Assembly (NCBI GenBank): GCA_049999805.1
Contig: JBNGIO010006010.1
Span: 1-64,000, forward strand
From: Folioceros fuciformis
Lineage: Eukaryota
DNA: 64,000 nucleotides
Direction: 5' to 3'
Shown here: positions 14,798 to 50,500 of the stretch, in pieces
How positions within the stretch are numbered: position 1 is the stretch's first letter
Layout: each line of letters opens with the position of its first letter
Position numbers and translations under genes: made by a program
Notes under the pieces: model-generated
What the model saw: only the letters and a program-made list of their open reading frames with translations
Told to the model about the DNA's origin: nothing
Databases searched by the model: none

Positions 14798-15300
14798 ATG
14801 TGGCTTAAAGTGGAAGCGTCTTTTGTCCATTCATGTAATCACAAAAATGTTATATGTACACAAACCCTAAACTAACAAAAGATGTGGCTTAAAGTGGAAG
14901 CGTCTTTTGTCCATTCATATAATCACAAAAATATTATATTATATGTACACAAACCCTAAACCAACAAAAGATGTGGCTTTAAGTGGAAGCGTCTTTTGTC
15001 CATTCATGTAATCACAAAAATGCTATATGTACACAAACCCTAAACCAACAAAAGATGTGTCTTAAAGTGGAAGCATCTTTTGTCCATTCATTAATCACAA
15101 AAATATTATATGTACACACATTCATGATTCCAACAAGCAATAATGAAAACTATGGTTTGATATAGCAATGCCAAATCTATGGCTTAAAGTAGAAGCATCT
15201 TTTTGTCCATCCATATAATCACAAAATAGTATATGTACACATATTCATGATTCTAGCAAGCAATAATGAAAACTACTTAGTACAATATACCAATGCCAAA
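14798..15300 (+). repeat. ~85-bp tandem repeat array (about 5 diverged copies) inside the MULE
   Basis: Recurring atgtggcttaaagtggaagcgtcttttgtccattca...tgtacacaaaccctaaa at ~14798, 14882, 14971, 15054 and 15178. Confidence 0.85.
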
Positions 15301-15461
15301 TCTAACAAAAACTATGCTTCAGTATGTTTGTTCCAGCAACTACATGGTTCATGAATGATTCTGCTTAGAAAGCTTCCAACTACTTTTCGTTTCTCAAAAT
15401 GCAACCTTTTTTTTTAAGCTGTTATCAGAATTGGTAGGATCAACCAAGGTAGAACCAAACC

Positions 15462-26558: not shown

Positions 26559-27512
26559 ATCAGCATTGATAGCCACCATTTCTCAGTTGACTATTAAGAT
26601 ATGTGGACGCCAGGAGCCCGTGAGGCCGTTGCGGAAGTCCAGCTCGCTTAGCAAGATGTTGATGAAAATCTGGCCTGATCTAGAAACGGCAAGCTTGGTC
26701 AAGTCATGCTCACCAGTCCAAAATCGTAGCAGTACCAGTGCAATCCAGAAAATTGGGAAGGCGGTTCACACTGGTGGTCTACCGGAAGAAGAGCAGCGTG
26801 TCAATCATCCTATTCCAGGTAGCTCTCCCTTTTCTTTCCACTCTTGGTGGAAGGACGTTGCATCCGCATCCGCATCGGCATTTTTTGGTCTTGCAGAAAC
26901 AAACTCGCTTCAATGAACGGTGCTCTGGATTCATCGCAGGAGGCCAAACATTATAACGGCCACACTCAGCTTTGTGAGAGAATCAATCACACAGACCCAA
27001 AATGCACGCAAAATTCTAGGTGATGAGTGTGTCGGTAAGATGCTGCAGTTGAGTACCCACCGCCAATGCGTGACTCTCGGATATGTATTTCAGTTACACA
27101 CTACGGAAACCCCTAATTGATGCTCTGTTATTGCCTGAAGGCAATCATGCACCATGAGAACATGACCGCCTCCACAGAGGCTATGTGCAACAGTATCCTT
27201 GCTGGACAGTGTACGCCCTCTTTGCATCTAGAGTTTGTGGGTTCCCCGGCAAGTTTCCAAAAACACTTACTCCCAGCAACTTATGTACTTTGCTAGGTTC
27301 CTGATATGTGGCTGCCATACTCCTACCCAGCCCTCAAGTCTCTGTCGAGTTGGGTCGACAATCTTTCAAACGGGCCAACTTGGATAGATTTTGGAAAATC
27401 CCAATGTGCGGGAATTCCCAAATCGACCGGTTTTCTGGTCTTTTCTTCCCTCGGCTGATTTCTTGCTCTGCAGCTGTCGTGCATGAAGCATATCTGAATG
27501 TGAAAGTGAACG
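26559..27512 (+). pseudogene. Inverted, internally deleted partial duplicate of the neighbouring dynein heavy chain gene
   Basis: 26559-26732 matches the reverse complement of ~43458-43630 (HFSVDY*DMWTPGAREAVA vs [19 protein letters not shown]); 26742-27512 matches the reverse complement of ~36215-37017 including introns (e.g. gttcctgatatgtggctgccatactcctacccagccctcaagtc vs gttcctgatctatggctgcaatactgctacccgagcctcaaatc); stops and frameshifts. Confidence 0.9.
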
Positions 27513-28173
27513 TCGGAAGGGTGGACAATATTATGGAGTTACAGAGATCAGATTGTAAGGCTTCAGAGTTTTGGGCTATTTTCGGATCTCCCGCACATGA
27601 AGTACCCATCGTGCAGAAGGGTGACCGATGCGACCCGAAACCAAAACGTCTTGCTCGACCGTGCCGAAGCATCCTAGATCTAGCTAGTCATTCTTACATC
27701 TCTCCTGACTGCTGTATCGAAGCCTGGCAGTCCCGACGTCTGCAGTCGCTACAAGCTAACCGCGTAAGGAGTTGTCTGTAGACAAATCATTCCCCGGCTC
27801 CATGCCATCCCACTTTCACCGAACTACAAACTTCAAAACATATGCATATTAATCGTTGCAGGTAAACAGACTTGAACCACCTCCCGCACACGTAATAGAC
27901 TTACCAAAAACAAAACGTTCTGGGCCCTCTGGACATAGCTCTGATCTCTAACATGGTAGACTACCCTAGGGCTCTGCTCAATTCTTCTGAGGCCTGAGAA
28001 AACAGGCCCAGGAAAAGAATAACCTAATGTCAGAACAGTAGAACATCATAAATTATATATCCTCTGAAAAGGAAGAACCCAAAAATGGCAGAAAAGTAAA
28101 ACCTCGTACATAAATAGTAGACTGCCAGACCAGCCGAAAACCTTTTGTGAACACTGAGAACAACCAAACCACG

Positions 28174-28398
28174 TCAACGGGCAAAGACTTCCGCATGAGG
28201 ACGTCGAATCCAAGTCATGGGAGTGAAAGGAATCAGGGAGTCGAAGTTCTCCATGTGGCGGGGATGGTTCAGATAGTTCCAGGTCTTNNNNNNNNNNTTG
28301 CATACAAGCATACAGGCAATGTAATCCTTGGGACCCAATCTCTTCACCACCTCACAAAGCACATTTTGGTTGAGGTCTCTCCACCTGTTCTCCTCCAT
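28174..28398 (-). pseudogene. F-box domain gene fragment
   Basis: MEENRWRDLNQNVLCEVVKRLGPKDYIACMLVC[N gap]KTWNYL fits the F-box pattern W-x-D-L...RL...D...VC-K-x-W; stops shortly after the domain. Confidence 0.6.
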
Positions 28399-28701
28399 CC
28401 TCAATCGAGTATTGTTCTGTATTCCACTGTCACTCTCTGTGCCATTGTTCTGTCTTCCACCAACCTTCCTTTTGGGTGCGTTCATCCATATATAGAGAGT
28501 CTTCCGATGACGCCAATCCTTAGAATGTGACATGATGATGTTCGCTTGTGCCACCAACCCACTCAACTTAAGCTTGTCTGCGCCGCCAACCCAGTGCACT
28601 AGAACTCAGAACCCTCTCCCAAAACCCTCTCCCGTGTACTCAGAACCCTGTATCGTTTCAATCGCCTCATGTGACACTATCATCCCTACTAGGGCAAAAT
28701 A

Positions 28702-28970
28702 TGGGTTAAGAACATGACGTGTATGTATATGTACTGCATCTAGATGCAACAGGGGGCCTGCTCAAATATGCTCTAGGGTTAAGAACATGACGTATATGTA
28801 TATGTACTGCATCTAATTGCAACAGGGGGCATGACACCATTCCTGTTCTCTTGCTTATTGTTTCGACGGCCGCACCCAACACTTTCACCTCCTTAGGGCA
28901 AAACATGTTCTAGGGTTAAGGGCATGATGTGTATGCATATGTACTGTATCTAGATGCAACACGAGGCATG
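28702..28970 (+). repeat. Three diverged ~55-bp direct repeats
   Basis: gggttaagaacatgacgtgtatgtatatgtactgcatctagatgcaac at ~28703, ~28776 and ~28913. Confidence 0.75.
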
Positions 28971-29529
28971 ACACTATTTGAGTTTAATGTGTGTGTCTGT
29001 GCGGTGCCAAGTTGTGCATATCTTGAGTTAGATTTAAGTAAAAAACTAGTTTGTTAGATTTAAGCCATCTACATATAATTTGGGATGCTATCATTCTACT
29101 TTTTTTTAAGGGCTGATATCGTTATGCAAATATAGTCCACCTATGTATGGGTTGTTTATGCAATATATCATTCATAAGTTGAATAAAAGATGGTATATGT
29201 TATTCAAATGAGATGAAAAATGTCGCATCAAATGTGTAAGACATCTAATTATTTGCCTTAAATTGATACCATTTGCAGACATATGATTTGTATATGCTAG
29301 TTAATTATCATGAAACCAAATATGTAAAGATCTAGATAATGAATATTTTATTTAAAGATGAGATGCTAGGTATTTAGGTATTAAGATGCAAAAGAGGAAG
29401 AGAGTATTTTATCTAAAGAGTTGAAAAATCTCATCTACCCTAAATAAGAGAAGGAAAGAACCCCAGACAGCCCCAAAAACCAAGAGGGGGCCTAGCCCTT
29501 ATGGATACCAATACCGCAAATAGCCACAA

Positions 29530-29755
29530 CTCCTAAGACATCATGATTGGAGATAGTGGAGGGCCCACCTAAAAATAAAGCCGATGATGCCTCTGGACGC
29601 AAGTAGGCACTCCTAAGACATCATAATTAGAGATAGTGGAGGGCCTACCTAAAAATAAAGCCGATGATTCCTCTGGACGCAAGTAGGCACTCCTAAGACA
29701 TCATAATTAGAGATAGTGGAGGGCCTGCCTAAAAATAAGCCGATGATGCCTCTGA
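29530..29755 (+). repeat. 80-bp tandem repeat (~2.8 copies) abutting the LINE fragment
   Basis: ctcctaagacatcat...gccgatgatgcctctggacgcaagtaggca starts at 29530, 29610 and 29690. Confidence 0.85.
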
Positions 29756-29960
29756 ATTTGCACACTTTGTAAAGCAATGAAAACGCGCTGCACAAAAGAA
29801 GCCACCATTAAAGAAAGGGGGAGAAACCCATTCTTGTGATTGTGATAAGACTTTGCATAATCCTTGATAAGTCTTGAGAAGTCCTTGCCCATGGCCCCAT
29901 GGGCCTCAAGAGTAAGGGGGATAATAATGTGACTATCCTACATAGGAGCAACAGCAAACG
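29745..29960 (-). mobile_element. C-terminal fragment of an RLE-type (CRE-like) non-LTR retrotransposon ORF
   Basis: IIPLTLEAHGAMGKDFSRLIKDYA...LSLMVASFVQRVFIALQSVQ resembles the restriction-like endonuclease tail F-x-P-x-x-x-E-x-x-G...Q-R-x-S-I-A-L-Q. Confidence 0.5.
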
Positions 29961-32013
29961 AGCTTTTGTTGAAGACCCAACTGACTAGCTGCAACAGCTC
30001 ACACCACTTATCGAATAGACACACCCGACCACCATCCCTGCTCAATCGTTGTACCTCCTCACTCACCTGCACCTACACATGCTCACAAGACTTACCACAC
30101 ACGAGAACAAGAGTAACAATGAGATGAAATTTGATCAATCATGCTCACAAGACTTAGCACACATGAGAACAAGAGTAANNNNNNNNNNTGATCAATCATG
30201 CTCACAAGACTTAGCACACATGAGAACAAGAGTAAAAATGAGATGAAATCTGATCAATCTGTAACAAAGAAAACTACTGTTGTACCTTTGTGCATTTCCT
30301 TAGCTTTGCTCTCAACAGTAATAAACTAGTAAATGCAGATTCCTATCTCCAAAAATGCCTTGAAGGATCACCCTGCCAAGGTTAGACATGTTGACTAATC
30401 ACAACCTCTTCGTGGTCTTATTTTCACATACAAGGGCAGAATCTTACGAGATTAGCCTCAAACTTTCATGATTTTGAGAGATTGACGCAGGAGCTATCTA
30501 TAATCCTCACAGGAGCTATCTATAATCCTCACCTAAGTTGAAGGAGTAGACTCTCTTCTATTAGAAGGCCTCAACTTCAATATTGATGGCAGTTGAGAAA
30601 AGCTTTCTTGCATCCTAATTCACACACGCAAGTTTGGTCAGAGGATGAGGATTCACCTTATCAAGGTGATAAGAACCTACCTTCACTCCATTTCAAAGCA
30701 AACGGAACAAAAGTGTTGTGGATACCCTACTACACTTAGCTCATTGCAAGTAATTTTGAAGTTAATCATAGTGTTGAAGTGATAAAGGATTGCATGGAGA
30801 CTTTGAACTCAGACATTTAAATTATTTATAATGGAGTTGACGCTATTAGCATGTAGCAATACCTTGCACAAAATTTACCTGTACAACCTGTTGCAGCTTT
30901 GTATTTGGATTCCTTGGTGCCCACTCGTGAAAGATTGGTTACTAAACCTCTTTGATCTCTTCAAGATTTGAAGGGTTGTTGTAGCCATACCCATCAATGT
31001 TGCTAAATCCTATGATTCTTTGTGGCGCCTATTGGATGGGTTGTACAGGTGTACAAATTTGTTGTTGATGAGCTAATTAGTTTATCCCTTCAGCACCTTT
31101 TTAGGTCTCATGCATCTTGTTGGTGCTCTAATAAACAATTGTTAGTTAGATTCATGTGACATTTTTTAGGGTTTAATCATTTATAGGAGTTCACCATTCA
31201 TGATTTGGTTTTTGGTTTTTTGTCAATATCTCTACTAGTGCCTTTTCACTTTAAGCACGTTTTGTCTTACTTGTTCACACCACAAGAGTCTAGCATGTTC
31301 TTTGATCCCTCCTTTTGGTTAAACCACGACACTCGTTTATCTCTGTGGTCACAAAAGTAGGTATTGGGAATCAACGGTGACTGAAAGGAAAGGAGACAAC
31401 TTAACTAGGGAGACTAATGGGAAGGGACGATAGTGGAGACAAACCAAGAAAAGGGTACTTCAATCAAGTCGTATCCGGCTCGAGTATGTTTGGACAACGA
31501 CCGGGGTGGGAAGATGGCTTACTTGTTTGAGTATCAATACTTTTCGGGCTAGACGATGTGCAGTGAGGTATAAGAGGGAAAAAGGGGAAGAGAATGGGGC
31601 GTCAAAGGTCACAAGGAGTAAGAGGTAGCGATAGAAGAGCACGAGGGAACTAGGTTGCGGTGTTTTCGGAGGTCTATGGTGAAGGAAGTATCAGGACGGA
31701 TGTCGGGGTGAGGAAGTGTGCAAGGAGATTGCGACATGGGGAGGGGTGCAAGGTGATACACGCCTCTAGCTGGGTGTTGGTCCTGCATCGAGATAGGGTA
31801 TGGTCCGAGGAAGGCACACGAGGGTGGCAAGTGTCGAAGCGGGGGGAGGGGGGGGAGAAGAAAGAAAGGAAGAATTCAAATCCTTGTGGGCCAAGAATGA
31901 GAAGGGGTCATGAAGCACAGGATCAGGGTTACCCAAGTACCTTTTGGAAGTGGTAATCTCACTAGCATGGCCAAGAGCTTTGCAGACGTTGCAGTAGTAC
32001 TCCCAAAGTCCGT

Positions 32014-32173
32014 TCTATACTATTTTAGGCCACTATCATCCACCCACTTGACCGGCGGGAATGAAAGTTGATAAATAAATAAAATTGATTGATATATTAT
32101 GTACGCACAAAATGATAATTGTTGCCATTTGCCGAGTGGTCCTCCACTTGGGTGGAGGGACCACCGATTCTAG
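32014..32173 (+). mobile_element. Small non-autonomous Helitron-like element
   Basis: 5' TCTATACTATTT; 3' GC-rich hairpin GTGGTCCTCCAC-ttgg-GTGGAGGGACCAC (32136-32164) followed by CTAG (32170-32173) and T. The base preceding the 5' TC is T rather than the expected A. Confidence 0.5.
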
Positions 32174-32479
32174 TGGTCGCAGAGCCTTGTGCTTCCGGGC
32201 TGGGGTGGACTTGTTATGAAGCTAAGGGTAGAGTGGGCTCCATTTAATCTATTCTAACGGCTTCTTCTTCATTCGACTATGTTATAGGTAAGGCAATAGG
32301 CTGGGTAGGGAGCTGCNNNNNNNNNNCATTCGACTATGTTATAGGTAAGGCAATAGGCTGGGTAGGGAGCTGCACCTATTGAGTGGTCAGAGGAACCGTC
32401 TTCTTGCGTGCCTATGAGGTAGGGGCTAGATTTTGAGCCAACAAGGTTAAAGATTGCATTCGGCAACTGCAAACTGTTC

Positions 32480-33160
32480 CACCTCCATTAACATGTTTAA
32501 GTGTCCCCAAATGTGATAGAGAAATGGGAACAGTGAGGAATGTGGGGTTTCTCCTGCAGCAACCTCTTAACATTGGATTGAATTTAATGTTCCACTACCT
32601 TGCCCCAATCTACATGGGAGCCCTATGCCAATCTGTAGAGGAGCATAAGAACTTCATGCGTGATGTGGTCCGTCTTTGAAACTAGCAACAAGTTGACGAT
32701 CAACCAAGCTAGTACCCCAATCCTCAAGTCAAGGATATCATAGATTGACCACCCTTTTGTAGTCTTGAAAGCTCCATCCGACAGAAGAGCCTTACCCGAT
32801 TCCTTGACCAACACTTTTCTCTAGTGAGAATTAAGATATAGCTGGCTCTTCTTCATTGCAAGCTGCCGAAAAGACATCCCTCATCTGTATGGTCCATAGA
32901 GGGGGTTGGCCCGCATGGTCCATAGAGGGGGTTGGCCCGCATCTGCGTGGAGTTTTGCCTTCCCTTCTCTCATAGCCAGAGGTTTCCTACAGGCTCACGC
33001 CACCACTATTGATTGAATGTTCTAGGAAAGCTAGAACAACCCCAACTATCATTGTTCCACCCAATCCCTTGCCACCTTTAGCCACGGAGAAAGGTTGGGA
33101 TAGGCGAGATTTGAATGTTGTCTTCATTGATTCTCCGCGGAATCATTCAAGCACCATCTG
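32480..33160 (-). mobile_element. Eroded transposon-associated ORF (plant transposon accessory-protein-like)
   Basis: GWSIYDILDLRIGVLAWLIVNLLLVSKTDHITHEVLMLLYRLA*GSHVDWGKVV resembles accessory ORFs of plant retroelements; many stops. Confidence 0.3.
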
Positions 33161-33799
33161 CACAAGGGAGCAGCAAATAGGAGAGATGAGAGATAACGAA
33201 GGAGCAAAAAGGAGTGGAGAACAAGAGGGAGTCACAAATTTGCCTTCACTTGTGACGTCAAAAGCTGGGAAGCTATAGCGGCAAAGATGTTGGGAGACAT
33301 AGGTGCTCAAAGTTATTAGAGTTGCAAGAGCTGGGCGAGGTGAGGATATGATCCTTGGCATTCTGCAGCGTAAAGCTCCTATGTTGCTGAGCTGTTTGAT
33401 GACTCAACCATCCTGTGGCGCTTTGCTTGCTCGTACTGCCCCTATAAGTACTAACATGGGTTCGATCCTTGCTCGTACTGCCCCTATCAGTACTAACATG
33501 GGTTCGATCGTAAGCCACCTCAGTGACACCTGCAAGTTGGCGGGTTCGGACTAGTCCATCCTACATGTTGTTAGTCCAAAGAATGCGACAAAGTCCAAAA
33601 TCAAAGGTAAGATTGAAATGAAAAACAAAAAAACAAAGTCTTACCTCCCCTTGATTTGCATGTTCAAGCTGGGTGTGGTAATTTGCTATCTCATGCACTT
33701 TCTCTATTATGTGCAGCACTAGTTTATCTTCAAGGTTAATAAAGCCTTTATCGACTTTCGTTGCCATGGGAGAAGATGTGCAAGTGCATCATTAGGTGG

Positions 33800-34492
33800 A
33801 GGTGCGGAGTGGGAAACTATGATCTCTTAGTTATGAAAGTAACTAAAGGCTATGACACAAGCCCCTTGAACACTCAAATGGATGAAGAAATGCTAAGCAA
33901 TATGCTTGCAAGCTTGGAGAAGAACACCATGTGTATTGAGTTTTGATTTGTTGTGATGCATGTGGTGGAGGCTACATTAGTAGAAAGGCTCTACGCAAAT
34001 ACTATAAAGAGAGGGTGTATGGTATCCTTTGTTTGAGACAACTTGCACAATGAGAGAGATGGGTTAGAGACCATGGAAGACATCATTGTGGCTTGTATGT
34101 GCGAAGAGAGTAGTGGTAAAGAACAAATGTCCATGCTCACAAGTGCAAAGTAGGGGTCTTTTAACAATGGGAGGTCCGTGATTGCGCAGGACATTGCAGT
34201 GAAGAAACATGTGTACCTATCATTGGACAAGTGGGTGATATACCCATATCATAGGCNNNNNNNNNNTGTGTACCTATCATTGGACAAGTGGGTGATATAC
34301 CCATATCATAGGCCTTTAGAACTAATGGCCAAGCTTGTATTAGCTTTTAGTAAGTAAGCGGATTGGGTTGTGGATGCATGCTCTAGTAGTGGTACCACTG
34401 TTATGGTAGCTTTGGTTAATAGGAAAAATCATATTGCCATAGAAGTGGATGCTAGATGTGCAGCATACATTCCTCAATGCATCAACATATAG
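33800..34492 (+). pseudogene. Decayed beta-class amino-DNA methyltransferase (N6-adenine/N4-cytosine, N6_N4_Mtase-like)
   Basis: Single frame (three in-frame stops before the N gap, one after): YDLLVMKVTKGY...YPYHRPLELMAKLVLAFSK*ADWVVDACSSSGTTVMVALVNRKNHIAIEVDARCAAYIPQCI. This parallels the family consensus HPTQKPxxLxxxLIxxxSxxGDxVLDPFxGSGTTxxAAxxxxRxxIGIExDxxYxxxxxxR. Confidence 0.65.
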
Positions 34493-35565
34493 GAGGGTTT
34501 AGGGTACCCCCAAATGCAATAGGAGAACCATCTTTTGAGGTTCATTCCAAGGGACCATCGCAATTCTTGGCAAAAGTGGTGAGCATCAACAACATAGATG
34601 GAAGGAGGGCGTAAGTCATGGCATTGGGCAAAATGAAGAGAAGAAGCTTGGTAGGAGCTTAGTCTGAATCAAGCCAACTCACTATCGAGGATGTTTTGAT
34701 GGGTAGAGGGGACGGCTAGGGTGGAGGCTAGGATTTCGCACTAAGAGAAAAGGCAGAAAAGGTGCTTGATAACTTCCAGCATAAGGAGGAGTAGGGGTCT
34801 CCTAACATAAGGAGGAGTAGGGGTTAGGAGACGTTCAAGTTAACTTCTAGCATAAGGAGGAGTAGGGGTTAGGAGACATTTAAGTTAACTTCATTCACCT
34901 TGCACCCTAAACCTTTGAATCTAGGCTTCCTGATGTGCCGTCATTTCGTGGTCATGAGCTTTGTGTTCCATGACAATATGGGTTCTAGATGAGAGAATGG
35001 TATGGTTTGTGACAATGGGGTAAATGGGGAGTTCTTTACTCCCCCACTTGCAACTTTCTCTTGTTACAAGCCTTCCCTTCCTTGTCACTAGCATTTGGTG
35101 GGTGGTCTTCTCATGTCTCTTCTGAGTTGCCTTCACCTTTCTTAGCTGGACCTCCCTCTCGTCCTTCATGCAATATTGAATAGAATTGCTAATTGCACAT
35201 GCATTGGAAATTGAAGCAATAATTGGACAAACTCAGCCTAGGATTGTCTTGATATATATAATATTTTATACATTATTAAAATCAGGTTCAGAAAAATATT
35301 GAACAAAAGTGATCAACATTGACCACCTTTGGTCTAGAGTGGAACAGCAATAGGACAATCTAAATCCTAATATTTTTCTTATATGTATAAATAATATCAT
35401 ATAATATAAAATAATAAGTCTTGCTGTGTGCATCCAAATAGTGTTAAAGAACCATGACATCCTCGTTGTGCGAACGCCCAATTCGCCCGTTCGTAACCCC
35501 CTTCCCATGACCCAGTGTATGTGGGTCCGCGTGTTTTTGTTATCAACTGTTTCGTTCCGGGCTCC

Positions 35566-38500
35566 CTAGTCTCTGCTGCTGCAAATTAGAGCTACGCCCC
35601 TTAGAATCCAGAATTTGGATTCCTTCTCGCCCGCCGGCAAGTCAACCGTGCCCACACAGCTCTCCAGTGCTTGACGCCTCCCTGTGTGTCAATCACAGGC
35701 TATGATTCCTTTAATACTGAACTTTCAATGCTTTGTCGGTTTGTAAGTATGGAGCAATGGGACCGTGCATACCATTTCTTGCCTGGTTCCTGTAAATGGG
35801 GCAGCTGTAGACATCGGGACTGCTAGGCTTTGGTGGGGCAACCTGGGAAGAGGAAGGACGGAGCCAAATGTCGCACATCTTGGTTAGAGGATGCTTGGGC
35901 TCGGTTTCAGTGAGACATTTTCGTTTCGAATCCCATCGTGCACCCTCCAGGAATAAGCCCGTGATGTAGTAGCCTTCCGACGGATACTCCATCTGCGAGA
36001 CCTCCAAATGTTACCTTTGGCTACAGTGCAGGCTCAATTGCAACCACTGCCGCATGGGTAACACAGGAGAATGTGGACCCGCTGGTGTACCTGAGACTCG
36101 TAATCCACCAACCCGATGTGCAAGGAAACAGTATCCAAGGGAGCAGCATGAAGACGGGCATGCTGTTGAACTGTAGCGGCAAAGACTGCCTGTAGTGGCC
36201 ACATTGTAAGCGCCCGATCACGTAACACTTCCACATTCAGATGTGCGTCATGCACGATAGCTGCAGAGCAAGAAAGCACCTGAGGGAAGAAAAGACCAGA
36301 AATCCAGATGACTTTGGGAGTTCCAAAATCTATCCAGCCCTTTATGAAATCCAGACGTTTTGAAAGATCGTCGACCCAACTCGCCAGAGATTTGAGGCTC
36401 GGGTAGCAGTATTGCAGCCATAGATCAGGAACCTGGCAAAGTAACTTGCTGAAAGTAAGTGTACACTTGGCAGGCTTCCCATTAACTCTGGATGCAAGCA
36501 AGTCGTACCTGTCCAGTAAGGATACTGTTGCAGACAGCTTCCATCGAGGCGGTCATCTCCTCAGGGTGCATGATTGCCTTCACGGAGTACCAGAACATCA
36601 ATTAGAGTATACTCACTAGTGTAATTGAAATACTCATCGCAGCGTCAGACATTGCTACTTTCCAGTCGGTGCTCAACTGCAGCATACATCGCAAGACAGA
36701 TATCACCGAAACCTTTGCGTACATTTTGGGTCTGTACGATGGATTCTCTCACAAGCTGAATCAGGCGGTTGTAATGTTTCACCTCCTGTAATGAATCCAA
36801 AGCACCAACCATTCATCGATGGGAGTTTGTTTCATCAAGGTGACAAATGCGGATGCATGGGTCCCATCTGATGCAACGTATCCCCAAAAAAGAGTGGAGA
36901 CACAGCAGCGAGCTACCTGGAGCAGGATCATCAGGAAAGGGTCATTGGAGTTCTTCAGATTTACACGCAGCTCTTCTTCTCGCAGATCCGTGTGAACCGT
37001 CTTCCCAATTTCCTGGAGACAATTCAGCGCCATTCCCTTTTTCTGCCATACCCATAAGTCAAGATGAGGCGAATGAAATATATAACGATCTCATCAAAAG
37101 GATACGCTCAAAGTTGGAATTGCAAGCATATGTGCAGATTAAGTATCTCACATCCTCGAACTCTAACATGCATGTGAAAGGTTCGATAAACGAGTTATGG
37201 TAGCACTCCAGGGATAAGGCTAATGCTAACAGCTCGTTTGCTTCTCTTTGTGCACGCCCAATCACTGCATCCTTGGGAAGCCCCATCACCTGGTTGAGGC
37301 AATTTTCAACTTTTCATCCAGCCCCCTAGGCTGAGACTGCCTGTAAGACTTGCACAAAAAGCCTCGGTGCACACTTCACACGAAAACCACCTCAGGGTCG
37401 TCTGCATCGGGCAAGTGTTGAGTGTGGTGGATGAAGTCTTCCAGAGTGCCTGTATCTTTGGGCAGATAGTTTCTCATCACCGCTTCCCAGTTGTTGTACT
37501 CATCCTCTGGAATCAGGAAAATGAACGATTCATTCTGCTTGCAAAAGATCTGCATCTGTTTGCCCTTGGACATGTAGTCCTGTCAAACATAAGTACTGTA
37601 CATATAGAGGTCCGGCACTTACTTGTAGCAAAACATCGGTCGTACAACTTTGCCAAACACAGCTGGTCCCAGGTGTCAACCACGTGACCACCATAAATGA
37701 TCTCTGTTGTCATTGTTTTCAAAAGGCTTCTATGAGAGAGAGTATCCAATGCTGGAGCACCCGAATTGCTGGGCTGTGTTGTGCAGTCTGCAGCGTCGGC
37801 CTGCTTTGTATCAGGTGAGTTCGTCGGCAGACTCTCGTCGTGTTTAAGTTCCTTTCTCATGTCCGAGATCTCGTCAAGTTGCGCTTTCGCAAGATTGAAG
37901 TCACTCAAGTCGATTGGCAGTGAATTGTTCCATCTACATGGACCACCTGGAAACTGTTAGCATTTACTGCCTGTAAAGTAAACAACGACCAATGATCGAC
38001 AACAAGCCATACCACAGCATCATTTCAACATCCTGAGAAGATGTTAGCTAGGGGAAGCACTTACAAAGGGAGAGACAGAAACGGCAAAAGTCGCAGGACG
38101 ATGAAAGTGGATGATTACCCCAGAGAGCCAAAGCTACCCCGCTCCTGGACCAACGAATGGAACAGGGCAAGTTGAAAAATAGCCCTTGAATGCCGCACAT
38201 TTCGGCCCTCCTTCCTCATCCTCCGTTGGCCCTGTCATGTTGTGATTCGTCGGTAAGATTGTTAAAACCACATACACAATTAGATGGCAGTAAACAGATT
38301 CAGAATACTTGGCAACTGACAGTGTAGTCTTCTTCTGCTTGTTGGGACAGTAGAATCTTTAAAACTTTGGATTTCACTCCCATCGAAGGCTCCAACACGA
38401 TTCTGACACTGCGTTCAAAGCAGCACACGCAAGATAATGAATATGACTGCTACCTACGCGGCCCACATGGTCAAGACCGGTCACTGTTATCAGAGACCTG

Positions 38501-41500
38501 AAAGAAAGAGTGTGCTGTACCAATTTGTAAGAAGGCTGGATGGGCACCCAGTCAACGGTCGGGTTGTGAGCCACAGGCGAAAAGTGCTTTGCACAATGCT
38601 TTGCTTTAACTCTTCGAACACAACTTCCAACTTTTTCATGAAGGCACCATCTATGTGACAATTTTGGAGAAGCACCCACCTGTATCCGAGGTCCTTTACG
38701 TATATGGCTTACATTGCTACTGTGTGACGTGAAAAGAGCTAAAAACATGATAACATGGTTGTTGGGAGCAAAATTATGCATACTCACTTTCCCCACTGAG
38801 CTGCTTCTTTGATAGCCTCCACTACCTTATGCCCCTGCGTGCCCACGACTCAACATTGAAAGGCAAGTGAGCACGGACGTCGCTACCCAGCAATTGGGTA
38901 TCGACAAACTGCAGAATACGAACCTGGCAGTGATCCAGAGAGAACACCCACAGCTTGCGGAGCATGCTCTGGCGCTTGGCGAAATCCAGAATCTGCATCA
39001 CACGATATCACTTAAGTAAATAGAATCTCCACGTTCTTAAAGCCACGATGACTTGTTACCTCTTCCACTGGGGCAGACACATTGTCGTGAATACAAGTGA
39101 TTGGAATATCCATATCTGATTCTTCATACGCATCCTCAACTGTAGTAAGCGCTTCATCTTCAGTGGCAAGATTTAGAATTTCTCTCACCAAATTTTGAAT
39201 AGCCTCAGCCAACTGTTCACATAATTCAGAATCAACATTGGGAGTCCAAGCAACTGGATGTTCACTTGATCGATTTGATTTCATGTTGAAACATCGCCAG
39301 GCTAAGAAACTGCTCACAAGGCTTAGGCAGGCAAAAGTGGAGGACCAGTACCCTATCAGGCCGTAGACAACGTAGTACAAGTAGAGACCTGAATGGTCCA
39401 ATTTTGTTCCTCCAAGCTGCAGGTATTGAGGCAAATGACTTGGACAGATAGAATTCTTTCCAGGGCCTGGTTTCCAGGTCTTCGATCAGGCCTTTATAAC
39501 TGTCAACAAGATCATGCCACGAATCTCTTAGCTCGCAGAAGCTTCCATGCAACGAGGAAGAAAGCTACCACAATCACCTGGGAAGCTTTGATAGATGGCA
39601 AAGCTGTCTCCACTCAGTGGACGTTGATTTCAACCATGAAGGGCATCTCTCATCAGAGCACGAGGGAGGACCCCCCGTGTCCCCTCGGAGCAAAAACATC
39701 CACTCGTCCTGGCACACATCTTGTCTCGTTTGTGCTATCCTGTAGGGTTACAGGTTAACATTCCAAGATTGGGCTCACAAGGAACCTATACTCATTCTGT
39801 GACGCGTCAGGCTATACACCAGACTTAATTTAGGTGTAATGCATCGTAAATTCACCTGAAAGTAATGAGGAGTCCAAATAGGAGACGGTGCCTCTGCAAG
39901 AGACTACTGCTGACTTGTTTGTAAATCGCAGAGGTGACCTTATGTATCAGATACGTTATCCTCGTTTCTAGCTCAACTGGATTCAAGGATGATGTTCGTT
40001 GCATGCTTTTGCTGTACGCAATTTTGAACCAAGGAAGAGTCCACTGGTAAATGGGTTCAAGCTGCAACACAGGCTAAGGAAGTAAGAATGGTGGCCTGTC
40101 ACCTACAACCCTTCTGGCCATGAGGTATTGAAAAAGTCCCATCAGAACATCATCATCCTGATGCAATATGGCTCTTCACAACAAGCCGAAAGTTAACAGA
40201 CTGATTTCACGACGAGTTGAACAAAAACAGACGAATAAAGATGAAGTACTTTGGCCACATCAGCAATGCAGGAGTACAAAATCGTTGCCCTTTCTGCAAT
40301 GGGCTTGTATCGTCGTCTTATGACTTCAATCACGTTCTCAGTTGACGATGCCTTTGTCATCCTCGACTGGAAAAATAGAAGCATCCGAAGAGTAAGCACA
40401 TCAATCATCTACAAACTCGGAACCTCCACTTCATACTTGGCACAGAGCTCAAGTCATCTGTCATTCCTCTTTTGATGTCTGTTACACATTCTGAATGGCC
40501 CACCCACAATCTGGTTCCTTAAACTTTCAATATTTCCATTTAGAGACCCCCTTTCCCCGCCCCGGCAGTCTTGTGTAACATAGCTGGAGTACCTGGATAT
40601 CAGCATATGTAGCTGTTGCCACAGACAGCGCTTGTTCAAGGGCCTCGTTGTCCAGAATAGTCCCCTGTTCAACACGGTTTGGAGCTTAGTGAAATTTCAG
40701 TAGAACTGGACGTCCCTGTAACGCGGGTCACTTGAGCAGGAAGAGATTGTTTGGCCCACCATTACTCCCTGAAGAAGTGTTAGAATATGATTCTCCACTT
40801 CGTGAAGCTTGCAATTCAAGGCTAGCCGTTGATGCAGTAGGCGATTCCTTTCCTCCTCCAGGTCCTGTCTTTCTCTTTCAGCGGCTGAAAGCATAAACTA
40901 TATTGTGAGGGTCTGTTGACGTTCACAGTTACAAAATACTTATGTGACCACGGAAGCACACTCTGAAACCAAAGCTGCATTCTTTGTGCCTTGCCCATTT
41001 TAAACAAAACAGTTTTCTGGCAGAGGTCAACAGCAATTTGAATGGCTCACCAATGGAGAGAAGCTGGCTACATAGTCCGTGGAATGTGATAGAAAAATCC
41101 ACGATGTTCAAGCTGATGCCCGCCTGCAGGCACACCAAACTTGCCAATGAGGATTCCCACACCCTATGTGTTCCGTTGTTAACAAGCTCCTTCTACACAA
41201 GCAGTGTGCTCCAGGACTATGTACCTCATCAGAGCACTTAAATCCTGTCTCAGTTGTCAAGAAAATGCACCGGCAGTCCGATGAAAACTTGCAGTGCTGT
41301 TTTGAAGGTCTCATGTTAAGAAGGTCACTTGATCGGCCTTTCCGCACTGTTGTGATCCGATGTAGGAGACCAGGGGGTGTAAAGCTCCCTACATTCTCGA
41401 CCAGCAGCAGTCCATCTCCTACAATGCAGGACTCAACTTCCTCAAGAAGTTTTTCTGAGTTCGCATCCACAGTTTGGACACCATAGGGGTCTTCCAGTCT

Positions 41501-44500
41501 ACGAATCCAGTTCCTAACTTGCTTTTGGGGATCGAGAACAAGGGCTGGGCGAGAACTGTTACACACAATGATGGCATTTTCCAGAGAATGCGTATCTGGA
41601 GGTAAGCCTGCATCTACCCATGCCTTGATATCCTGAGGAGTACTGCAAAATGTCACCAACGAAAAGTCGTCGGAGTGCTGCAAACCCATCCGTTGAAAGC
41701 TTTGCTGCCATTGTTTAAGTATGCTAGCTCGTACAGAAGCTGGAAAGGCACCAAGATAAGCGACATATCCTGCTGCAAGCAGAGTATCACCCATCAAGTT
41801 TTCTCTACGTTTTTTGAGACTAGAGACCTGCTCTGCCCAGCGACGGCATTCCCCGTCGAGTCTTGTGATAAGACGTACGGCTCGCTGCAATTTCAGTTCT
41901 GAATCCTCCGCCTTTCTAACAAGGCTACCCTTTGTAACACTTGCATTTTCATATCTGCGCAGGAATCGACAACGTACCTCAGTCAGGACGGATCTGGAAA
42001 GACTACTTTGCGCCTTAGTGCCAACTTGGATAACTCTCTTGTACCTGGCTCTTAGGTGGTAAAGACTCTCCTCTATTGCTGCGAGGTTCAGCCTCTTTTG
42101 TTCAAGTTTTTCTTTGCATTTTTCAAGATTCTCGTTGGCGACCTGCTTAAACCGGATTCTACTTAGTCTTCCACATTACAGCTGAGACAACGGAGCCACC
42201 ACATTCACCCTTGTATCTATTTCGGACCACCAGACAGCCTCTCTCTAGGCCAAAGGGAGAGACATCACCCACCTTCAATTTCTCGAGCCTTGGCTCCATT
42301 TTGATGGTCTTCGCAACATGGTATTTATACATGGCTCTTATCCATATGCATATAGAACGGCAAGCAACTGATATCCTTCTTACTTTCTCTGGCTTGAATA
42401 GAGGATTCTCCATGTAAGGCCGTAGTTTTTCCATGGTAGAACTTTCCATCCCATCTTTGTTGAAGTTCAAGAGTAGCTGAACGAAGTTGACCTGCACAAA
42501 ACTCGAGTCCAGTTATGGTCTGAACAGCACCAATTAACGTACATGGTATAACTACAAAATTCAGACCATACATCTTACTTGAGACAGGAGTTCTCGTGCT
42601 ACAGGCCAGTAATCATCTGTCACTTCATATTTAAGAATCTCATGTGGGACAGAGGGTCGCCTACGCCTGGGTTTCTTCCTAAGGATAATGCAGAGCGCTT
42701 CTAGCACAATAAGTAGACGGGGAGGTGGCTGAGTGAATGATTTCAATTCAGACACGTCCTTTTTATTAAGGAGACTAAGCTGTTTGATAGCTGCTGAAAC
42801 CTGTGTGAGAGCAAGCGTTTTAGAAACCGGAGGGGGGACAACGAGAAGAAACTAAGAGCTTTATGCTGTTAATGATCTGTGTTATTAACTATCAACTACA
42901 CCTGTGGAGCAACCTCCTCAACTTGCTCTTGAGCAGCTTGTGCCAACTGCCTACACAATTCAGCCTCCTCTACAGCAAGTTTTTCCTCATCATAGACAGC
43001 TTGTAATGCTTTGTCCATGGCTAACTGCTCATCATATATGGAATTCAGTAGCTGATCCATATCTGAACTGGTGTGTTCCTTGCAGTTCAAAATTTCCTGG
43101 AGATCCTTTTGCATTTGCACAACTAGATTTCGAGTGGATTTTAGCTTCTTCACCCCGATCTCAAGGCGGTCCAGGTAAGTAGCCAATTCACCTCCCTTTT
43201 TGTCCAATATGCTACCAAATACATAAAGCATCTCATGATAGCTAGCCAATCCAATCAGCCTCCAGGACCCTTTCTGCCACACATATCCTTGTCGAATAAA
43301 ATTGGAAGAACTCTTACCCTGCAACGAATTACAGAATCCACGAGCGTAGTCATTGGGCTGTTGTCAAAGTAAGATGCACACGTAGTATATAGCAGCAACG
43401 AGAATAGCTGCGAACCTTACAAGACATACCATGGATAACTCCGAAGCCAGAGCGTTGCTAAGATTGTGCACTGCTGCGCATGACTTGACCAAGCTTTCCA
43501 TGGCTGGATCAGGCCAGGCTTTCACAAGATCATGCTCAGTGAGCTTGACTTTAGCAACTGCCTCTAGGGCTCCTGGCGTCCACCTATCATAATAGTCAAC
43601 TGAGAAGTGGGTGGCTATCAATGATGAGTCGTAGAAACTGCTCTGGATTGCTTCACTTCCAGAAGAGTTCCCTGCACAGATCACCTACACCCGTCGCCCC
43701 ACCATGTTATCTGGCGAAGCATGATGCTGTTACGAGCACACCTCACGGAGAGACTTAGAGCTCCGATGAGTCAGCGGCTCAAGTTCCATTTACCAGATGA
43801 AGCCTGGATCTCAGGCGCTGCAAGAAACGCAGCTTCAAGAACTGCTCCCTGTCACTGCCAGTCTCCAGCTCGAAAGTGGGCAGCACTGACATATCCTCTA
43901 GTCTGTAGAGCTCTTGTTGGATAAAATATTTCTCCTTGTCGCCAAGTAATTCCCAGGCCTGAACAGTGTTTGACCATGCCAGATCATGAAAAACATGATA
44001 ATTTCAAGCAGGGATATTTTCAAAGCAACAGGAAGGAACATCAACCTCTCCACAGTGTATGATTTGCTTAAGGTCTTGCATTATCGTTCTCTGAATATCA
44101 ATGTCAACTTCCATCTTGAGGAGGAGCACGGTTTGTATGTCCCTAAGGCTGCATGACTTCAGCAGCTCTTTGAGAGTCACACTCCAAGTTTGATAATCGT
44201 AGTCACTGTTAACTTGAACCTGTGATGTATTGCTCTGTGAAAGTTCAGTCCTGCCCGGGAGATTGTGAATTCTTAATATAGGAGGTTAGATTGATTACAA
44301 CTAACCTCATAGAGAACGAAGCCAAGTATATGCGTTGCCAGTCTGGTCATGGAACTCCTCCCACTTCCAGAGCAACCCAGAAGTAATGCATGTCCATCTG
44401 GCATTTGAATCATGCGTAGGATCCTAGAGAGGTGTGTCAATGCCTCTGGAAACAATACTAACGCATTTTTATATCCCTCTTCCAAGCTGTAGCTGATCAA

Positions 44501-47500
44501 AAACTTTTTCATATTCTCAGCCCATACAGTACGGTCATGGACTTCATCATACTGTGACCATGCTTGAATCACCCCGTCGGCCTGCATAACGCGGTAGTAT
44601 GACCCATATATTGGTTGTTTCTGCTCGCTTACAAGACATGCTAGAAATGGAAGCTGATCACCAGTCTCAGGAATCAACTTTTCTTTTGCTACTGCCGACA
44701 AAGCCGAGACCACCAAAGCTCTGTCAGCGGGATTCTTCAATCCATCGCAGAATGCTCGGCAGAACTCATTTGCCCAAAGTCGAAATATGCCATCCTTTTC
44801 TGTGAAACTCTCCAAAGAAGCTGAAAGAAGCCGCTTGAGCACGAGAAAAATACTATGTAGGCTAATGGAGAAGCGGTCTGTAAGTGTCTGAAAGGCCAAC
44901 TTGAGCTGTGAATAGAGCTTGACAGATGCTTCACTGATATGACTTAGAAGCAAGCCGGTTACAACATTGCTGTTTAGCTCATGGTATCTTCTACCAAGAG
45001 CTTCAGAGAAAATGGAGGTAAGGGAGCTCTCATTGTGTTCACTCACATGGATCTGAAAGTAATGCCGAAAGAGTCTATCCACAGGGAACTGCGAAGGTGA
45101 TCGATGGGTGGTCATAGCTGCTAAGTGCACAAGTCCATGTACAGCCGTAAATGTAGCATCTGCAGGGAAGCCATACCATCCTTGGTACTCAATGAGAAAC
45201 CTCAGAAATTGTTCAGTCGGCGCCTCGCCCTGTGGAGAAATATTCAAGTCATCTATGAAAACTGCCATTTTTTCATGGATCGCAGGTGAGAGCATCCTCC
45301 TTTTCCTTATGGCCATTTTTGGCCTCAGCACGTCATATAAACCTGACCCACCTGAGGTTTCATGGAGGGTAACTCCAACAATTTGATAGTTCTGTGAGGC
45401 CCTCAGTCTGTGCAAGAGATAAGATGCAATACTGGTTTTCCCACAGCCTGCCACACCTGACAGAAGAACTGGCCTCGAAAGGTCTGACAGGCAAGCTGCA
45501 AGCATCTCATATCGCATTGTTTCATGAGTATGCACGTGCAGCGCTCCATCTACCAGACTCAAGCTTAAGTGAGAGCCATGTTTAACCAAATCATTCGGTT
45601 TTGAGACCAGCTCTATCCCTGCACCAACATGCAAAACTGTATCTGACAAGAGATCCTTCCAGCTCTTCCAAACCATAGTCTCTGCATCAAAATAAAAATC
45701 GTAGATGGATCCATCTGGAAGCATCCCTGAAAATTCTGAATATGTAGACGAGCAATCTCGAATAACTCTGTCAAACCGGTCTCGATTTTCCAAGTCAGCA
45801 AGTATCCCTCCTACCGACCAAACAAGGCTGAAAATGAACAAAGAGCCCACACTTGCTTTCAGCTTTTGCAAAATATCAGTAGAAACTGATGTAGCCTGGA
45901 TGTCCATGTCCCGCTCATGCATCAAAATGTCAGCTTCACCTGCCTGACTATTCTTCTCATCCATGTCTCCAATATCTCGATCCCCACAGACATCCTCGCA
46001 TGAGTACCATGAACTTTCATGGTACAATCTCCGCCAGTTGACAATATCCCGCACTTGTTTCTGGCTTTTGGTAAGAATCTGAAAACTATTTTTTGGGCTC
46101 AGCCCATTGCTGCCTCCATTGTCACCCCGACAGTTGGACTCCATGTAGCCTTTCTGGCTACAGCAAACCTCAAAATAAGACAGTCCACCTTCACCTCCTC
46201 GTCCCACTCGTTTCAAAATCGCTTCCAAAACATTCAGCAAGTTTTGCACTAGGCCCACATAGCAAATTGACCCAGGAGGACATCCTGAGATGACTTTCAG
46301 ACAAGGTGCAAGAAAAGACTCAAAGAGCTCCTCAAAAAAAGTATGAAATGCTGATCCTGCCACATGCTTCTGCACCCAGGATAGGACAAGAGGCCGCCAT
46401 CCTGGTTCTAATGGATCCATCAATACAATCCCACATCTGGAAACCGTTGCTGGAGAGACACCCTTCAAGGTGTCAACTTCAAAAATGACACTGAAACTCT
46501 CTGCAGGAGGCAAGAAAATCCGTTCACCATTCTTCAAGAAAAGGACGCCGGTGTCATCAAGCATAGTGTTAACACTGTCAACCCACTGCCCACTCATTGA
46601 TCCATCCAAAACCATCCAGAGTGCCGTGTCTTTTGCTGAAATAGCCTCACATTTCTGCAGTATGTGCGGTACAATACCTTCCTGCCAGCAATGTGATTTA
46701 GGGTTCACACTTCCAAAGAGATGTCCCGTGGATACTGCGGTTGGATTCACAACCTCCACCATAACATGCTTGGCAAGAGCCCTGTTCTGGTCATCCCTCT
46801 TCACCTGAGATTTGATCAAAAGGCCTGCATCTTGGTAGCTTTGTGCATCTGCCATGATGTTGAAAGCTCTGGCAAGGCTGGAGTAACACTGAGTCTTACC
46901 CGCACCTGATCCTCCAACAATCATCACACCCTGATGCACTCTCATCGTGCCATGGAGTTGCACACACTTCTGCACTAGGGGTTCATGGGGGCATAGTCGT
47001 CGCTGTGCTAAGCCTAGTTTAATGGAAGCTTCCAACCCTCCTTGCTTCATTGGAGGGATCTGCAAGTAAGGAAAAAGGTCGAGCAGGAGACTTGAGAAGA
47101 GACTGAAGCCATCTCCCACTAGGCGGGGTAAGCAATACTGCTGCAAGGTTTTGCACAGAATTAGGTCTCCATTACACACATTAGAGGAAACTGCGAACCA
47201 CTGGTCTGGTGCTGATCGTAAAATTCCCATCCACTTTATCACAGCCTTCAAGGCCCTGAGACCAAAGTCACAGTGGTGATTCTCGAAAAATAGTTGCTTA
47301 CCAGCGATGTGAAAGCACAAAGTCAGTTTCCTAGCCACACCGGCTGAATCCTCAAACCCTTCAGCCACAAGCAGGATCCGTGCAACCATGCTTGTATCAG
47401 GATGAATCATAGAGACTGGCCTAAACAGAGACCGAATATTTTGAGTGCATTCAGGTCGAGAGGAGCACACGGGCTTCATAGTAGTACAGATGGCAAAGGA

Positions 47501-50500
47501 CGGATTCAGAGCAAGACCAATGCCCTCATACGTAAATCTTTGCGCTTTCATGATAACAGCGTGTTGAATGATAAGCAGTTGCTTTGCCAGAACAGAAATG
47601 ATGTCAGGTCGTAGGCACTCGAATTCATCTAGACAAAGCCAGATCCCTCCACTTGCCATACCCTGCAGGTGAAGCCAACCCATATATCACAGACAAAGTC
47701 TCGGATATACCCATGTTACAAACTGCAAACAAGTAGAAAGCAACTAACTCAACCCCTCTCTCCATGCAGATAAGACAGACTTCGAAACTAACCTTCAAAG
47801 CATTTCCAATCGCACTGTGATCTATCTCTTCAGAGCAGCTCATCACTATACAATGTTTACCCAAGGATTTTGCAAGATCCTTCACTGTTTCAGTTTTTCC
47901 TGCCGCAGCAGGCCCGCTAATGGCACCCCCTAGGCCGAGGGAAAAGGCATGCATCAGACCAACAAAGCATCGTTCTGTAAGGGGTGTCATGACCAATCGG
48001 TTCTGATAGTCAACGAGATCAAAGCCGTATTGACGCTCAATTTTCAAAACTTGAGCCTGGCAGGCTCCACTCGAATGGCAGTAATATCGCAAAACCTGCT
48101 GCCATGAAAATGCATCCAGTCCTACAAATGGGTCACATTTTAGTTTTTCAACGGTGTCCCTCAGGTAAACACCAACCAAGACAAGGCTCTTCCAAGTTCC
48201 TTGCTCTTCAACACTTGAACGTGACTTGATGCTCTGCAACAAATCCTGCAGTTGCTCGTCTATAAGGATTAGCTCAGTATTCAGATTTTTGGCTACATCT
48301 TCCGTCAATGACATCATCATTTCCATGCGATGGCAGAATATAACACAAGCAGAAACCACCAATATTTGGCAGTTGACCATGTTCTTTTCTGGCTCCCCCT
48401 CCTGAAGCAGTGGAGCAGGGGTTTCAGTTCTTGCTGTGCATTCTGAAATGTCAATAACTGTCCGGTCCAAAGTGCTGGGCTTAACATCAATACTTGCTCT
48501 TGCAGGGACAGGAGAATGCTGGGCAGCAAGATACGTTTTAGAGCACAGCAGCATCTTGACTCTCGCTAAAAGAGCCTCCTTTACTTTCTCCTTCATTGCA
48601 AGCTCAACAGCAACCATCCAATGCTCAACAGGCTTGTCAGATGTTGTGACTGGTGTTGAAAACAAGAGCTTTTCTGATTTTCTGATCCATAAGCCCGCAA
48701 CATTACTTTGATGTGGATGATCACCTTCGGTTTCTACAAACGCTATGCAGCGCACATCACCAAAGCACTTACAGAGGTAGTACTGCAATTCCTCTGGGTT
48801 GCGTTCGTGTGAGATCACCTAGATAAGTGTGCGTCGTGAGTCTTGGAACTAACCAATCACATAATTTGAATGAAAGAAGACGTACCCACAGTCTGAGAGA
48901 CCAGGGAGCACCTGAAGTAGCTCGTCATTCGAAAGAAAGAAGAACCTTGGGAAAACAGCACGTTTTCTTTCAAGCAGAGCAACTAGGCTGCACATGATTC
49001 CCTCCATAGTTTGTATGGACTGAGGCACATTGTCAGTTATGAGGCTTGACTCGCACAAATGCATAAAGAGACCTCGGGTAGTCACCAATTCCAAAACTTC
49101 CTTCCATCTTAAGTTAACGTCTTCAAACCTACTGGATTCCTCTGTCAGCTGCTGCTGGATATTTGATGACTGGAATATGGGCTGCAGGGTCTGGTCAATG
49201 GCAGCATATATGTGATCAGATATAATGTTAGGCAACTCCATGTGCACCAAGGCAAAAGAGACTTACCTGCATCCACTTCTGACAGTTTAGAAGGCCTTCC
49301 AGAAGCTGAAGCAGAACATATAGTTTTTCTCGCCATGCACGAATGTTGCCCTCCAAGGCTTTTGCATAAGGACTGTGAAGCATTGAGCCAGCTGCCACAA
49401 GCTGATCATCCAATAACTCCAACACATGCTCACTCCCCTGAATGACCTGTCCTTGTCCATGTACAAGAGGGCTCAAGTGAAGATTTGCTCGCCTCATCTC
49501 TTCCTCCATTTTCTCCAAACACACCTAGAACAGTGAAGATCATGATCAGGTCACCTTACTGTGCAAACTGACTTGTGTTCACACAAAGTGTTGAAAGTGT
49601 GCAAGCATAAAACATTCAATGTCTCGATATGTCACTCATCTTACTTCTTGATTGTACTCTTCTGCTGCACGCTCTAAGACGGCCACAATAGCTTGACGAT
49701 TTTCAAGAAGTGGTAATTCGAGCACAAAAGAGAACATACACTCATCATCTGCTTCTTGAAAAGTGTGGTCACCAGTATCTTTGGAAAGCTCAATCCAGTG
49801 CATTCTGCGTACTCCCGGATGATGTAGCCGGACAATCAATGGCATCCTGGCTACCATCCAGTTCACCTGATAATCAGAGTAGTGTTATCACGTAAATCTG
49901 TCAGCGTCATAAAGAAATCTACAAGAAAGCGGAATTAGAAAACAGTCAGACACGTTCTATTCAAGTAGGATTTCGAAATGGAAGAACAAACCTGATCAGA
50001 AAGCGCAAGCAAGGCCTGCTTACTCGAAGAGGAAGCCAAAGGATTTGTAAGGGTATCAACCTTCTCCACAAACGTTTGAATCTGAGTTATTCATTGACAG
50101 CAAGGGTGAGAGCCTTATCCTAACAGTGCAGATTTTCAGAGAATTTCTGTTGTAGATATACTGCATCTATGGGTATAAAAGTGAAAAATCTCCTGCTGTG
50201 GCATAGGGTTCTAGGTCAAATTTGCACAAGCTTTTAGTTGATCACTGACTGTCCTAAACGTTACCAAAGCTGACATGTTATCGATGTTGATCTGCTTGAA
50301 CTGCAGACTCAGCCAATGTTTCCTGGCACGTTCCCAGTCTGCGGCTGTGATCCATAAAGCTGCAAGCCAATCAACCTTGTCAAGGGAAGGCGCGATCAGC
50401 CGTGCACACTCACCTTCCTCAAACATCTCTAACAGCTTTTCCTGTCTCTGTAGCTTCTGAATAGCTGAACTAATTTTCCTTAGGTCTTCTGCTGACATCT

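Follow-up and report, generated by a model that had tools for sequence, protein, structure and literature searches.

A short stretch of the Folioceros fuciformis window (the whole 64,000 nucleotides of contig JBNGIO010006010.1 analyzed here) is, by its homology to other copies in the genome, a dead and truncated form of the gene that a Sola1-type transposon carries as cargo, represented by the methylase exon only. We regard it as practically settled that the window gene is transposon cargo, and as highly probable that the carrier belongs to the Sola1 superfamily, an assignment set by target duplication, termini and published description rather than by comparison with a reference transposase. 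The family is likely a self-binding pseudo-enzyme, which would bind DNA rather than methylate it because its key catalytic residue has been swapped. A first-pass annotation of this DNA had proposed the dead remnant of a beta-class amino-methyltransferase gene whose family is spread by transposons and has paralogues, and this part of the proposal stands, as seen from a match to the Pfam family PF01555, at least 104 genomic loci and the ends of the element. The working 4mC/6mA marking system that it had also envisaged is unsupported, since the family has Arg in place of the catalytic aromatic residue.

The peptides from which the methylase had been recognized do lie in a single plus-strand frame and at the expected places, with YDLLVMKVTKGY starting at 33818 and YPYHRPLELMAKLVLAFSK*ADWVVDACSSSGTTVMVALVNRKNHIAIEVD following about 160 codons on. 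This stop-broken beta-class amino-methyltransferase frame occupies 33743..34492 (+) and includes four internal stops (TGA at 33944, TGA at 34034, TAG at 34151 and TAA at 34355), one gap of Ns (34258-34266) and a closing TAG at 34490. Based on blastn and tblastx comparison of window positions 27001-37000 with all fetched loci, the whole relic covers 33656..34680 (+, the end being approximate), namely the end of the preceding intron, the methylase exon and the start of the C-terminal tail. Three motifs can be located on the plus strand: KVTKG at the position of catalytic motif IV (33836..33850, from the alignment and a census of 44 copies), PYHRP (34301..34315), which corresponds to PYQKP of the paralogues and, in beta-class enzymes of solved structure, to the HPTQKP stretch, and the SAM-binding motif I (34373..34396, from the alignment), which reads DACSSSGT here and DACAGSGS or DACSGSGT in the paralogues. 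The tail remnant (…GPSQF…) lies in a shifted frame at 34483..34677 (+; E 5.8e-6 in tblastn, the query being the L044 tail).

The assembly gap at 34210..34368 (+) lies over a local tandem array of a 102-bp unit (34 codons, 34267-34368), with TGTG at both junction ends. In two DNA runs of a single sample, which may be the one behind the assembly, contigs derived from the reads join the end of this unit back to its own start, and the depth of the unit is 3.7-5.6 times that of the flank. One run presumed to be RNA gave no sequence on the window, and no RNA data set was listed for the cargo gene; neither result bears on expression. Because of this end-to-start junction and the excess of depth, we interpret the N gap as a collapsed tandem array, and the sequence previously described as a 47-bp gap duplication is the edge of this array, not a simple overlap. 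Tblastn with ParB and transposase queries gave no match to either in the window, and pattern searches found no inverted end and no palindrome there. Since the window copy is devoid of ends, transposase, ParB part and palindrome, the assignment of its origin rests on homology and on the tree described below. Its CpG observed/expected ratio is 0.24, compared with 0.65-0.78 in three better-preserved copies.

Translated through its stops (33740-34489, with X at stops), the frame matches PF01555 (N6_N4_Mtase) at E 1.2e-8 and 35.6 bits against a cut-off of 26.7; it is the sole Pfam family listed at E<=1, so that the profile comparison recommended earlier gave a significant result above the family cut-off. 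The methylase of locus L033 scores 41.9 bits against the same cut-off. Sequence comparison of the window frame with solved structures placed beta-class DNA methylases first, with weak scores (E 0.07-0.9), and the family alignment has the permuted order of the beta class, in which motif IV precedes motif I. For a structural model of the methylase domain (pLDDT 61), the best Foldseek matches were M.RsrI, M.MboII and CcrM (E 2e-10 to 4e-10), with M.PvuII and N4CMT (the latter at E 5e-9) also among the matches; these matches fix the class and leave the target base unfixed. Phage methylase profiles match the cargo methylase as well.

The relic sits in about 8 kb between the 3' end of an axonemal dynein heavy-chain gene with short introns (36034-55032, -) and an inverted duplicate, the segments 26576-27745 versus 35800-36931 and 43456-43610 being inverted, 73-87% identical copies of dynein heavy-chain parts. 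The dynein gene suggests a land plant with flagellate sperm as the host. The window also carries a Mutator-like element (13597-18170) with inverted ends of about 200 bp (99% and 91% complementary) and a decayed MULE transposase (PF10551, E 4e-5), as well as an F-box fragment (28174-28605, -), a copia-type reverse transcriptase fragment (60180-60880, +) and a frame with the presumably Harbinger-like motif GAVDGSHI (57674-58060, +), for which no Pfam match was found. Decayed repeat-derived coding fragments at 32593-32793 (-) and 29755-29937 (-), likewise with no Pfam match, are common to unrelated parts of the fetched loci.

The search of the 87-Mb assembly yielded 118 matches (141 candidates scored), which merge into at least 104 loci, both counts being lower bounds, and thus other copies in the genome, for which the first-pass annotation had suggested looking, do exist. 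The closest paralogues share 40-59% identity with the window copy. The intact relatives that had been anticipated did not turn up: only one of 24 near-full methylase domains is free of stops, and that copy has no ParB part, and none of the copies examined proved to be an intact element. Nearly all stops in the 24 domains are TAG or TGA (59 of 63).

Outside the genome, 1.84 billion proteins were searched with a profile, and 73 matched at E<=1e-10. The top three proteins have DLPRG at motif IV and are followed by proteins with D-x-P-Y-G, a group that includes ParB fusions of Chara and Adiantum; the Ginkgo fusion has DIPHG. Weaker matches came from Cymbomonas and a sea cucumber. One predicted Chara braunii protein (GBG86584) contains two tandem ParB-methylase units. 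Word-indexed protein searches with the L033 methylase gave no match at near or longer lengths, and two scans of metagenome contigs (with P0014 and with alignment A2) revealed no relatives. A quick tree was built from 70 rows, 14 from the genome and 56 of 151 outside proteins, with the MpDN4MT1 and N4CMT sequences outside its scope. In this tree, the genome copies group with two outside DLPRG proteins in a single clade (support 98), which is nested in a clade with streptophyte proteins (support 92); therefore, the Arg motif is derived and shared beyond this genome. The window copy falls inside the DLPRG clade on a long branch, its exact place having a support of 80. The nearest relatives of the cargo methylase are eukaryotic proteins.

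The carrier is an element of 8.6-9 kb, in which a DUF7869 transposase gene is arranged head-to-head with the ParB-methylase gene. The transposase matches DUF7869 at E 1.4e-48 and contains the motifs DGMDQ, QLDN and GHTHD; we take this domain to mark Sola1 transposases, and it was not named in the literature searched. The genome has 92 DUF7869 matches at 78 loci, and related transposases occur in Riccia and Ceratopteris. DUF7869 was found within 10 kb of 18 of the 104 methylase loci, versus at most 1.9 expected under uniform placement, which is a naive null as transposons cluster. In all 18 linked loci the transposase is located upstream and on the opposite strand, and these loci include members of the window copy's subfamily (L003/L081, L008/L082 and L043). 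The other 86 loci have no transposase match within 10 kb, which may be caused by short contigs and decay.

Flank alignment, proposed earlier as a way to the ends and the partner transposase, delivered inverted ends and 4-bp duplications in addition to the DUF7869 gene. The aligned copies share end points, which in most copies are inverted repeats of about 30 bp starting with AAC. Six copies retain both ends; the 4-bp target duplication is perfect in five of them (CAAG, ACTT, ATAG, ATAA and TCAT), and in the sixth it matches at three of the four positions. For the window copy's subfamily, no inverted-end pair was found in the loci checked. The fullest copy, L071 (contig C2463), measures 8.9 kb between its 30-bp inverted ends and comprises, in order, an inverted end, a two-exon transposase gene, a small frame, the ParB-methylase gene in the reverse direction and the other inverted end. 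Both large genes of L071 have premature stops, and the intron of the cargo gene has GT..AG ends. The small third frame between the two genes (L071:4055-4618, -; L043:7611-8240, -) is weakly conserved across subfamilies and has no Pfam or PHROG match. A further subfamily is represented by L076:506-9123 (contig C3332), with a differing inner end sequence, the same AACA start and a 4-bp duplication.

The 4-bp duplication and the AAC..GTT inverted ends are features of Sola1, with Sola1-1_Ec32 as the reference for termini. CACTA/Plavaka and Chapaev carriers were considered less fitting, given the length of the duplication (4 bp), termini that begin with AAC and the agreement with Sola1-1_Ec32. The target preference AWWT or AWDT, given for insect Sola1 families in the parts of the literature available, was not found, as none of the five perfect duplications fits AWWT; in the available description, the preference of the Ectocarpus family also differs from insect AWWT.

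A bacterial-type domain matched by phage methylase profiles might also have come from a one-off bacterial insertion, a contaminant or a pseudogene of a host methylase, to which we assign a negligible probability: the family occupies over 100 loci surrounded by plant genes, the element ends are flanked by target duplications, the cargo gene has a GT..AG intron, the sequence is CpG-depleted (observed/expected 0.24) and the nearest relatives are eukaryotic. These origins are ruled out by the number of loci and the duplicated element ends together with the transposase linkage.

Where copies are better preserved, a longer gene can be recognized that has the methylase as its last exon and a GGNH motif in its N-terminal part; the architecture of the cargo gene as a whole is a ParB-fold, a helical and a methylase domain. 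The N-terminal part has no Pfam or PHROG sequence match, and its ParB domain was undetected by sequence search of solved structures but detected by fold search. With the N-terminal model (pLDDT 67), the best ten Foldseek rows were all ParB/Noc (best E 1.5e-4), and the top eight rows of VIA-align were all of the ParB/sulfiredoxin fold, including PadC with Z 10.4 and rmsd 2.7 over 98 residues. The characteristic motif of ParB is GxxR, and GGNH occupies its position.

The census of motif IV in 44 distinct aligned copies from the fetched loci gave D-[LV]-P-R-G as the family motif, with Asp in 40 copies, Pro in 36, Arg in 31 and Gly in 38. No copy has Tyr or Phe at position 4 or Ser at position 1. 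The catalytic (D/N/S)-P-P-(Y/F/W) with its aromatic residue was not found in the 44 copies, and the window copy reads KVTK, which had been taken for an eroded DPPY and which the census identifies as a decayed D-V-P-R, the family's own motif. The only aromatic residue at position 4 is one Trp, derivable from Arg by a CpG change, and most of the residues seen there in place of Arg (Gln, His, Cys, Trp and stop) are the expected CpG-decay products of Arg codons, of which five are used across the subfamilies. PYQKP and motif I are conserved across the paralogues according to the alignment.

We calculated pairwise dN/dS for the 24 near-full domains, a set without the window copy, any duplicates, three rows with frameshifts and rows of less than 200 codons. 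The ratios, from pairs that are non-independent, are 0.16-0.20 in 53 pairs with pS of 0.3-0.74 and 0.42-0.45 in the 13 closest pairs; they are undefined in the 210 of 276 pairs that are saturated. From these values and the stop counts, we infer that the domain was under purifying selection while bearing Arg and has decayed since.

As far as the motif allows a prediction, we lean towards a cargo protein with little or no methyl transfer. In the available text of PMC10406627, the Tyr of SPPY is modelled as stacking on the target base, and replacement of Ser and Tyr abolished the activity of N4CMT according to the accessible part of PMC8885841; this was a double change, so it is indecisive for Tyr alone. 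The conserved Asp and Pro of motif IV, PYQKP and motif I would fit an active enzyme equally well. Along these lines, the same element could carry an active N6-adenine methylase that uses D-x-P-R and is targeted by its ParB part to the palindromes described below, so that 6mA keeps the element transcribed. Beyond the conserved residues, this reading draws on purifying selection in the methylase domain, on N6-adenine enzymes as the closest solved matches and on the role proposed for algal elements in the available text of PMC12477816. However, it has to face 44 copies with no motif IV aromatic save one CpG-explicable Trp, as well as the indecisive N4CMT double replacement (PMC8885841), and we consider it unlikely, though deserving of attention.

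We see very little chance that the family is a relative of Marchantia DN4MT1 or rotifer N4CMT that spread as a mobile 4mC system. The beta-class fold is the same, and Foldseek also matched N4CMT structures (E 5e-9). However, motif IV has Asp in 40 and Ser in none of the 44 copies, the family profile gives E 0.05 for N4CMT versus 6e-6 for M.RsrI, and the proteins most closely related to it are ParB fusions with D-x-P-Y-G. The kinship with the 4mC enzymes of Marchantia sperm and of bdelloids, all of them with (T)SPPY, suggested in the first-pass annotation thus finds no support, the family grouping with Chara, fern and Ginkgo proteins.

The element contains palindromes with the core GCGCCGG-N4-CCGGCGC. 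L071 has 12 of them: the intron of the cargo gene contains four, that of the transposase gene six, and the remaining two lie in other places, the introns being inferred from gaps in protein matches and, for the cargo gene, also from the GT..AG ends. In 356,426 fetched bases, the 4-nt spacer gave 108 matches (<=2 changes) versus 0-2 for each of eight other spacers, and a longer form of the palindrome has 121 exact sites in the genome, whereas its reversed control has none. Even in distant subfamilies, where synonymous sites are saturated, the half-sites are retained, with spacers that differ; they are absent from 7 of 31 stretches. We consider it rather probable that the palindromes are bound by the cargo protein.

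Repeats in subterminal or internal positions that are bound by the transposase are common in cut-and-paste elements. The palindromes might therefore be transposase sites, or passive hairpin insertions, with a cargo protein that has no sequence-specific link to the element; six of the 12 L071 palindromes are inside the transposase gene, and the inferred introns of both genes contain them. We find this doubtful, however, as palindromes with a fixed 4-nt spacer are expected of a dimeric binder, most of them are far from the element ends, and similar arrays lie beside ParB-domain genes in red-algal Plavaka elements of another transposase superfamily, as described in the available part of 10.1101/2025.02.11.637652.

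Our preferred reading, which we hold to be somewhat probable, is that the Sola1 cargo protein binds the palindromes of its own element and shields the element from silencing, probably with no normal methyl transfer involved. Recognition of the palindromes would be the task of the ParB-fold and helical domains, in the way that ParB recognizes parS, a dimeric ParB-fold protein being a plausible palindrome binder. The methylase fold would keep SAM and DNA binding, and with Arg in place of the Tyr that active enzymes stack on the flipped base it may have become mainly a binding or base-flipping module. The purpose would be to protect the element from host 5mC, or to control its transcription against it, CpG-rich palindromes being prime targets of this modification. 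A bolder reading, which we hold to be rather improbable, is that in a land-plant transposon lineage a phage-type ParB-adenine methylase turned into a selected pseudo-enzyme (or acquired a new chemistry) that clamps the CpG-rich palindromes of its own introns and blocks cytosine methylation by the host. If true, this would be a second, bacterially derived sequence-specific anti-silencing system of plants, independent of VANDAL/VANC.

Few cases are known of transposons that bind themselves and alter their own epigenetic state, and for the algal ParB-methylases such a role is a proposal. The present family offers an 18-bp candidate site, diverged subfamilies that keep the half-sites and a natural motif pair, D-x-P-R-G and D-x-P-Y-G. 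It also implies that most PF01555 matches in such plant genomes can be transposon cargo and are no evidence of Marchantia-type 4mC.

Sola elements, moss Sola1 included, were reportedly described by Bao et al. in 2009. Sola1 is listed for Physcomitrella in the available part of PMC9033089, and the accessible portions of PMC6431247 and PMC12730594 make no mention of Sola. A review (PMC4738411, in the part available) reports ParB-methylase fusions in chlorophytes and few such enzymes in land plants. In the literature searched, with the original Sola paper and Repbase outside its scope, there was no description of a land-plant ParB-methylase cargo or of the D-x-P-R motif. The land-plant spread, the defined palindrome and the conserved Tyr-to-Arg swap thus look new, an earlier description in moss Sola1 being possible.

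The ParB-methylase cargo design of Sola1 is already known from Sola1-1_Ec32 of Ectocarpus, which, in the available text of PMC12477816, has a gene with ParB-like and N4C/N6A methylase domains opposite its transposase, the termini AACCG-CGGTT, a 4-bp duplication and moss Sola1-1_PPa as its best protein match. The Folioceros element resembles it in the opposite-strand ParB-methylase gene, the 4-bp duplication and the AAC..GTT termini. By the same description, Sola1-1_Ec32 differs in size (21.5 kb versus 8.6-9 kb) and in its 282-bp imperfect ends (versus about 30 bp), whereas the Folioceros element is set apart by its land-plant host, the D-[LV]-P-R-G motif and the internal palindromes, the available text mentioning neither motif nor palindrome for the algal element.

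The Plavaka accessory genes PAG2/PAG3 of the red alga Bostrychia (10.1101/2025.02.11.637652, available part) are similar in three respects: a PF01555 methylase carried by a transposon, a domain resembling ParB and arrays of inverted repeats that are proposed to be its binding sites. In contrast, their carrier is EnSpm/CACTA, and the domains occur in separate genes as methylase-SET and ParB-2OG oxygenase fusions. The nearest named relatives are proteins of Chara braunii (GBG86584, GBG66685), Adiantum nelumboides (MCO5585897, MCO5553878) and Ginkgo (Gb_37443), which share the ParB, helical and methylase architecture and are annotated as hypothetical or N-4/N-6 domain proteins. The Chara and Adiantum proteins keep D-[FLA]-P-Y-G and the Ginkgo protein has DIPHG, unlike D-[LV]-P-R-G of the Folioceros family. 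MpDN4MT1 and N4CMT also represent a beta-class fold of bacterial origin in a eukaryote; however, they are domesticated host genes with (T)SPPY and proven 4mC activity, and the available accounts describe no ParB fusion or carrier transposon for them. The functional analogue is VANDAL/VANC of Arabidopsis, in which, as far as the accessible descriptions go, a transposon protein binds motifs of its own element and alters the epigenetic state; its carrier is MuDR, its protein is unrelated and its activity has been shown, whereas the Folioceros family would be a counterpart proposed from its sequences.
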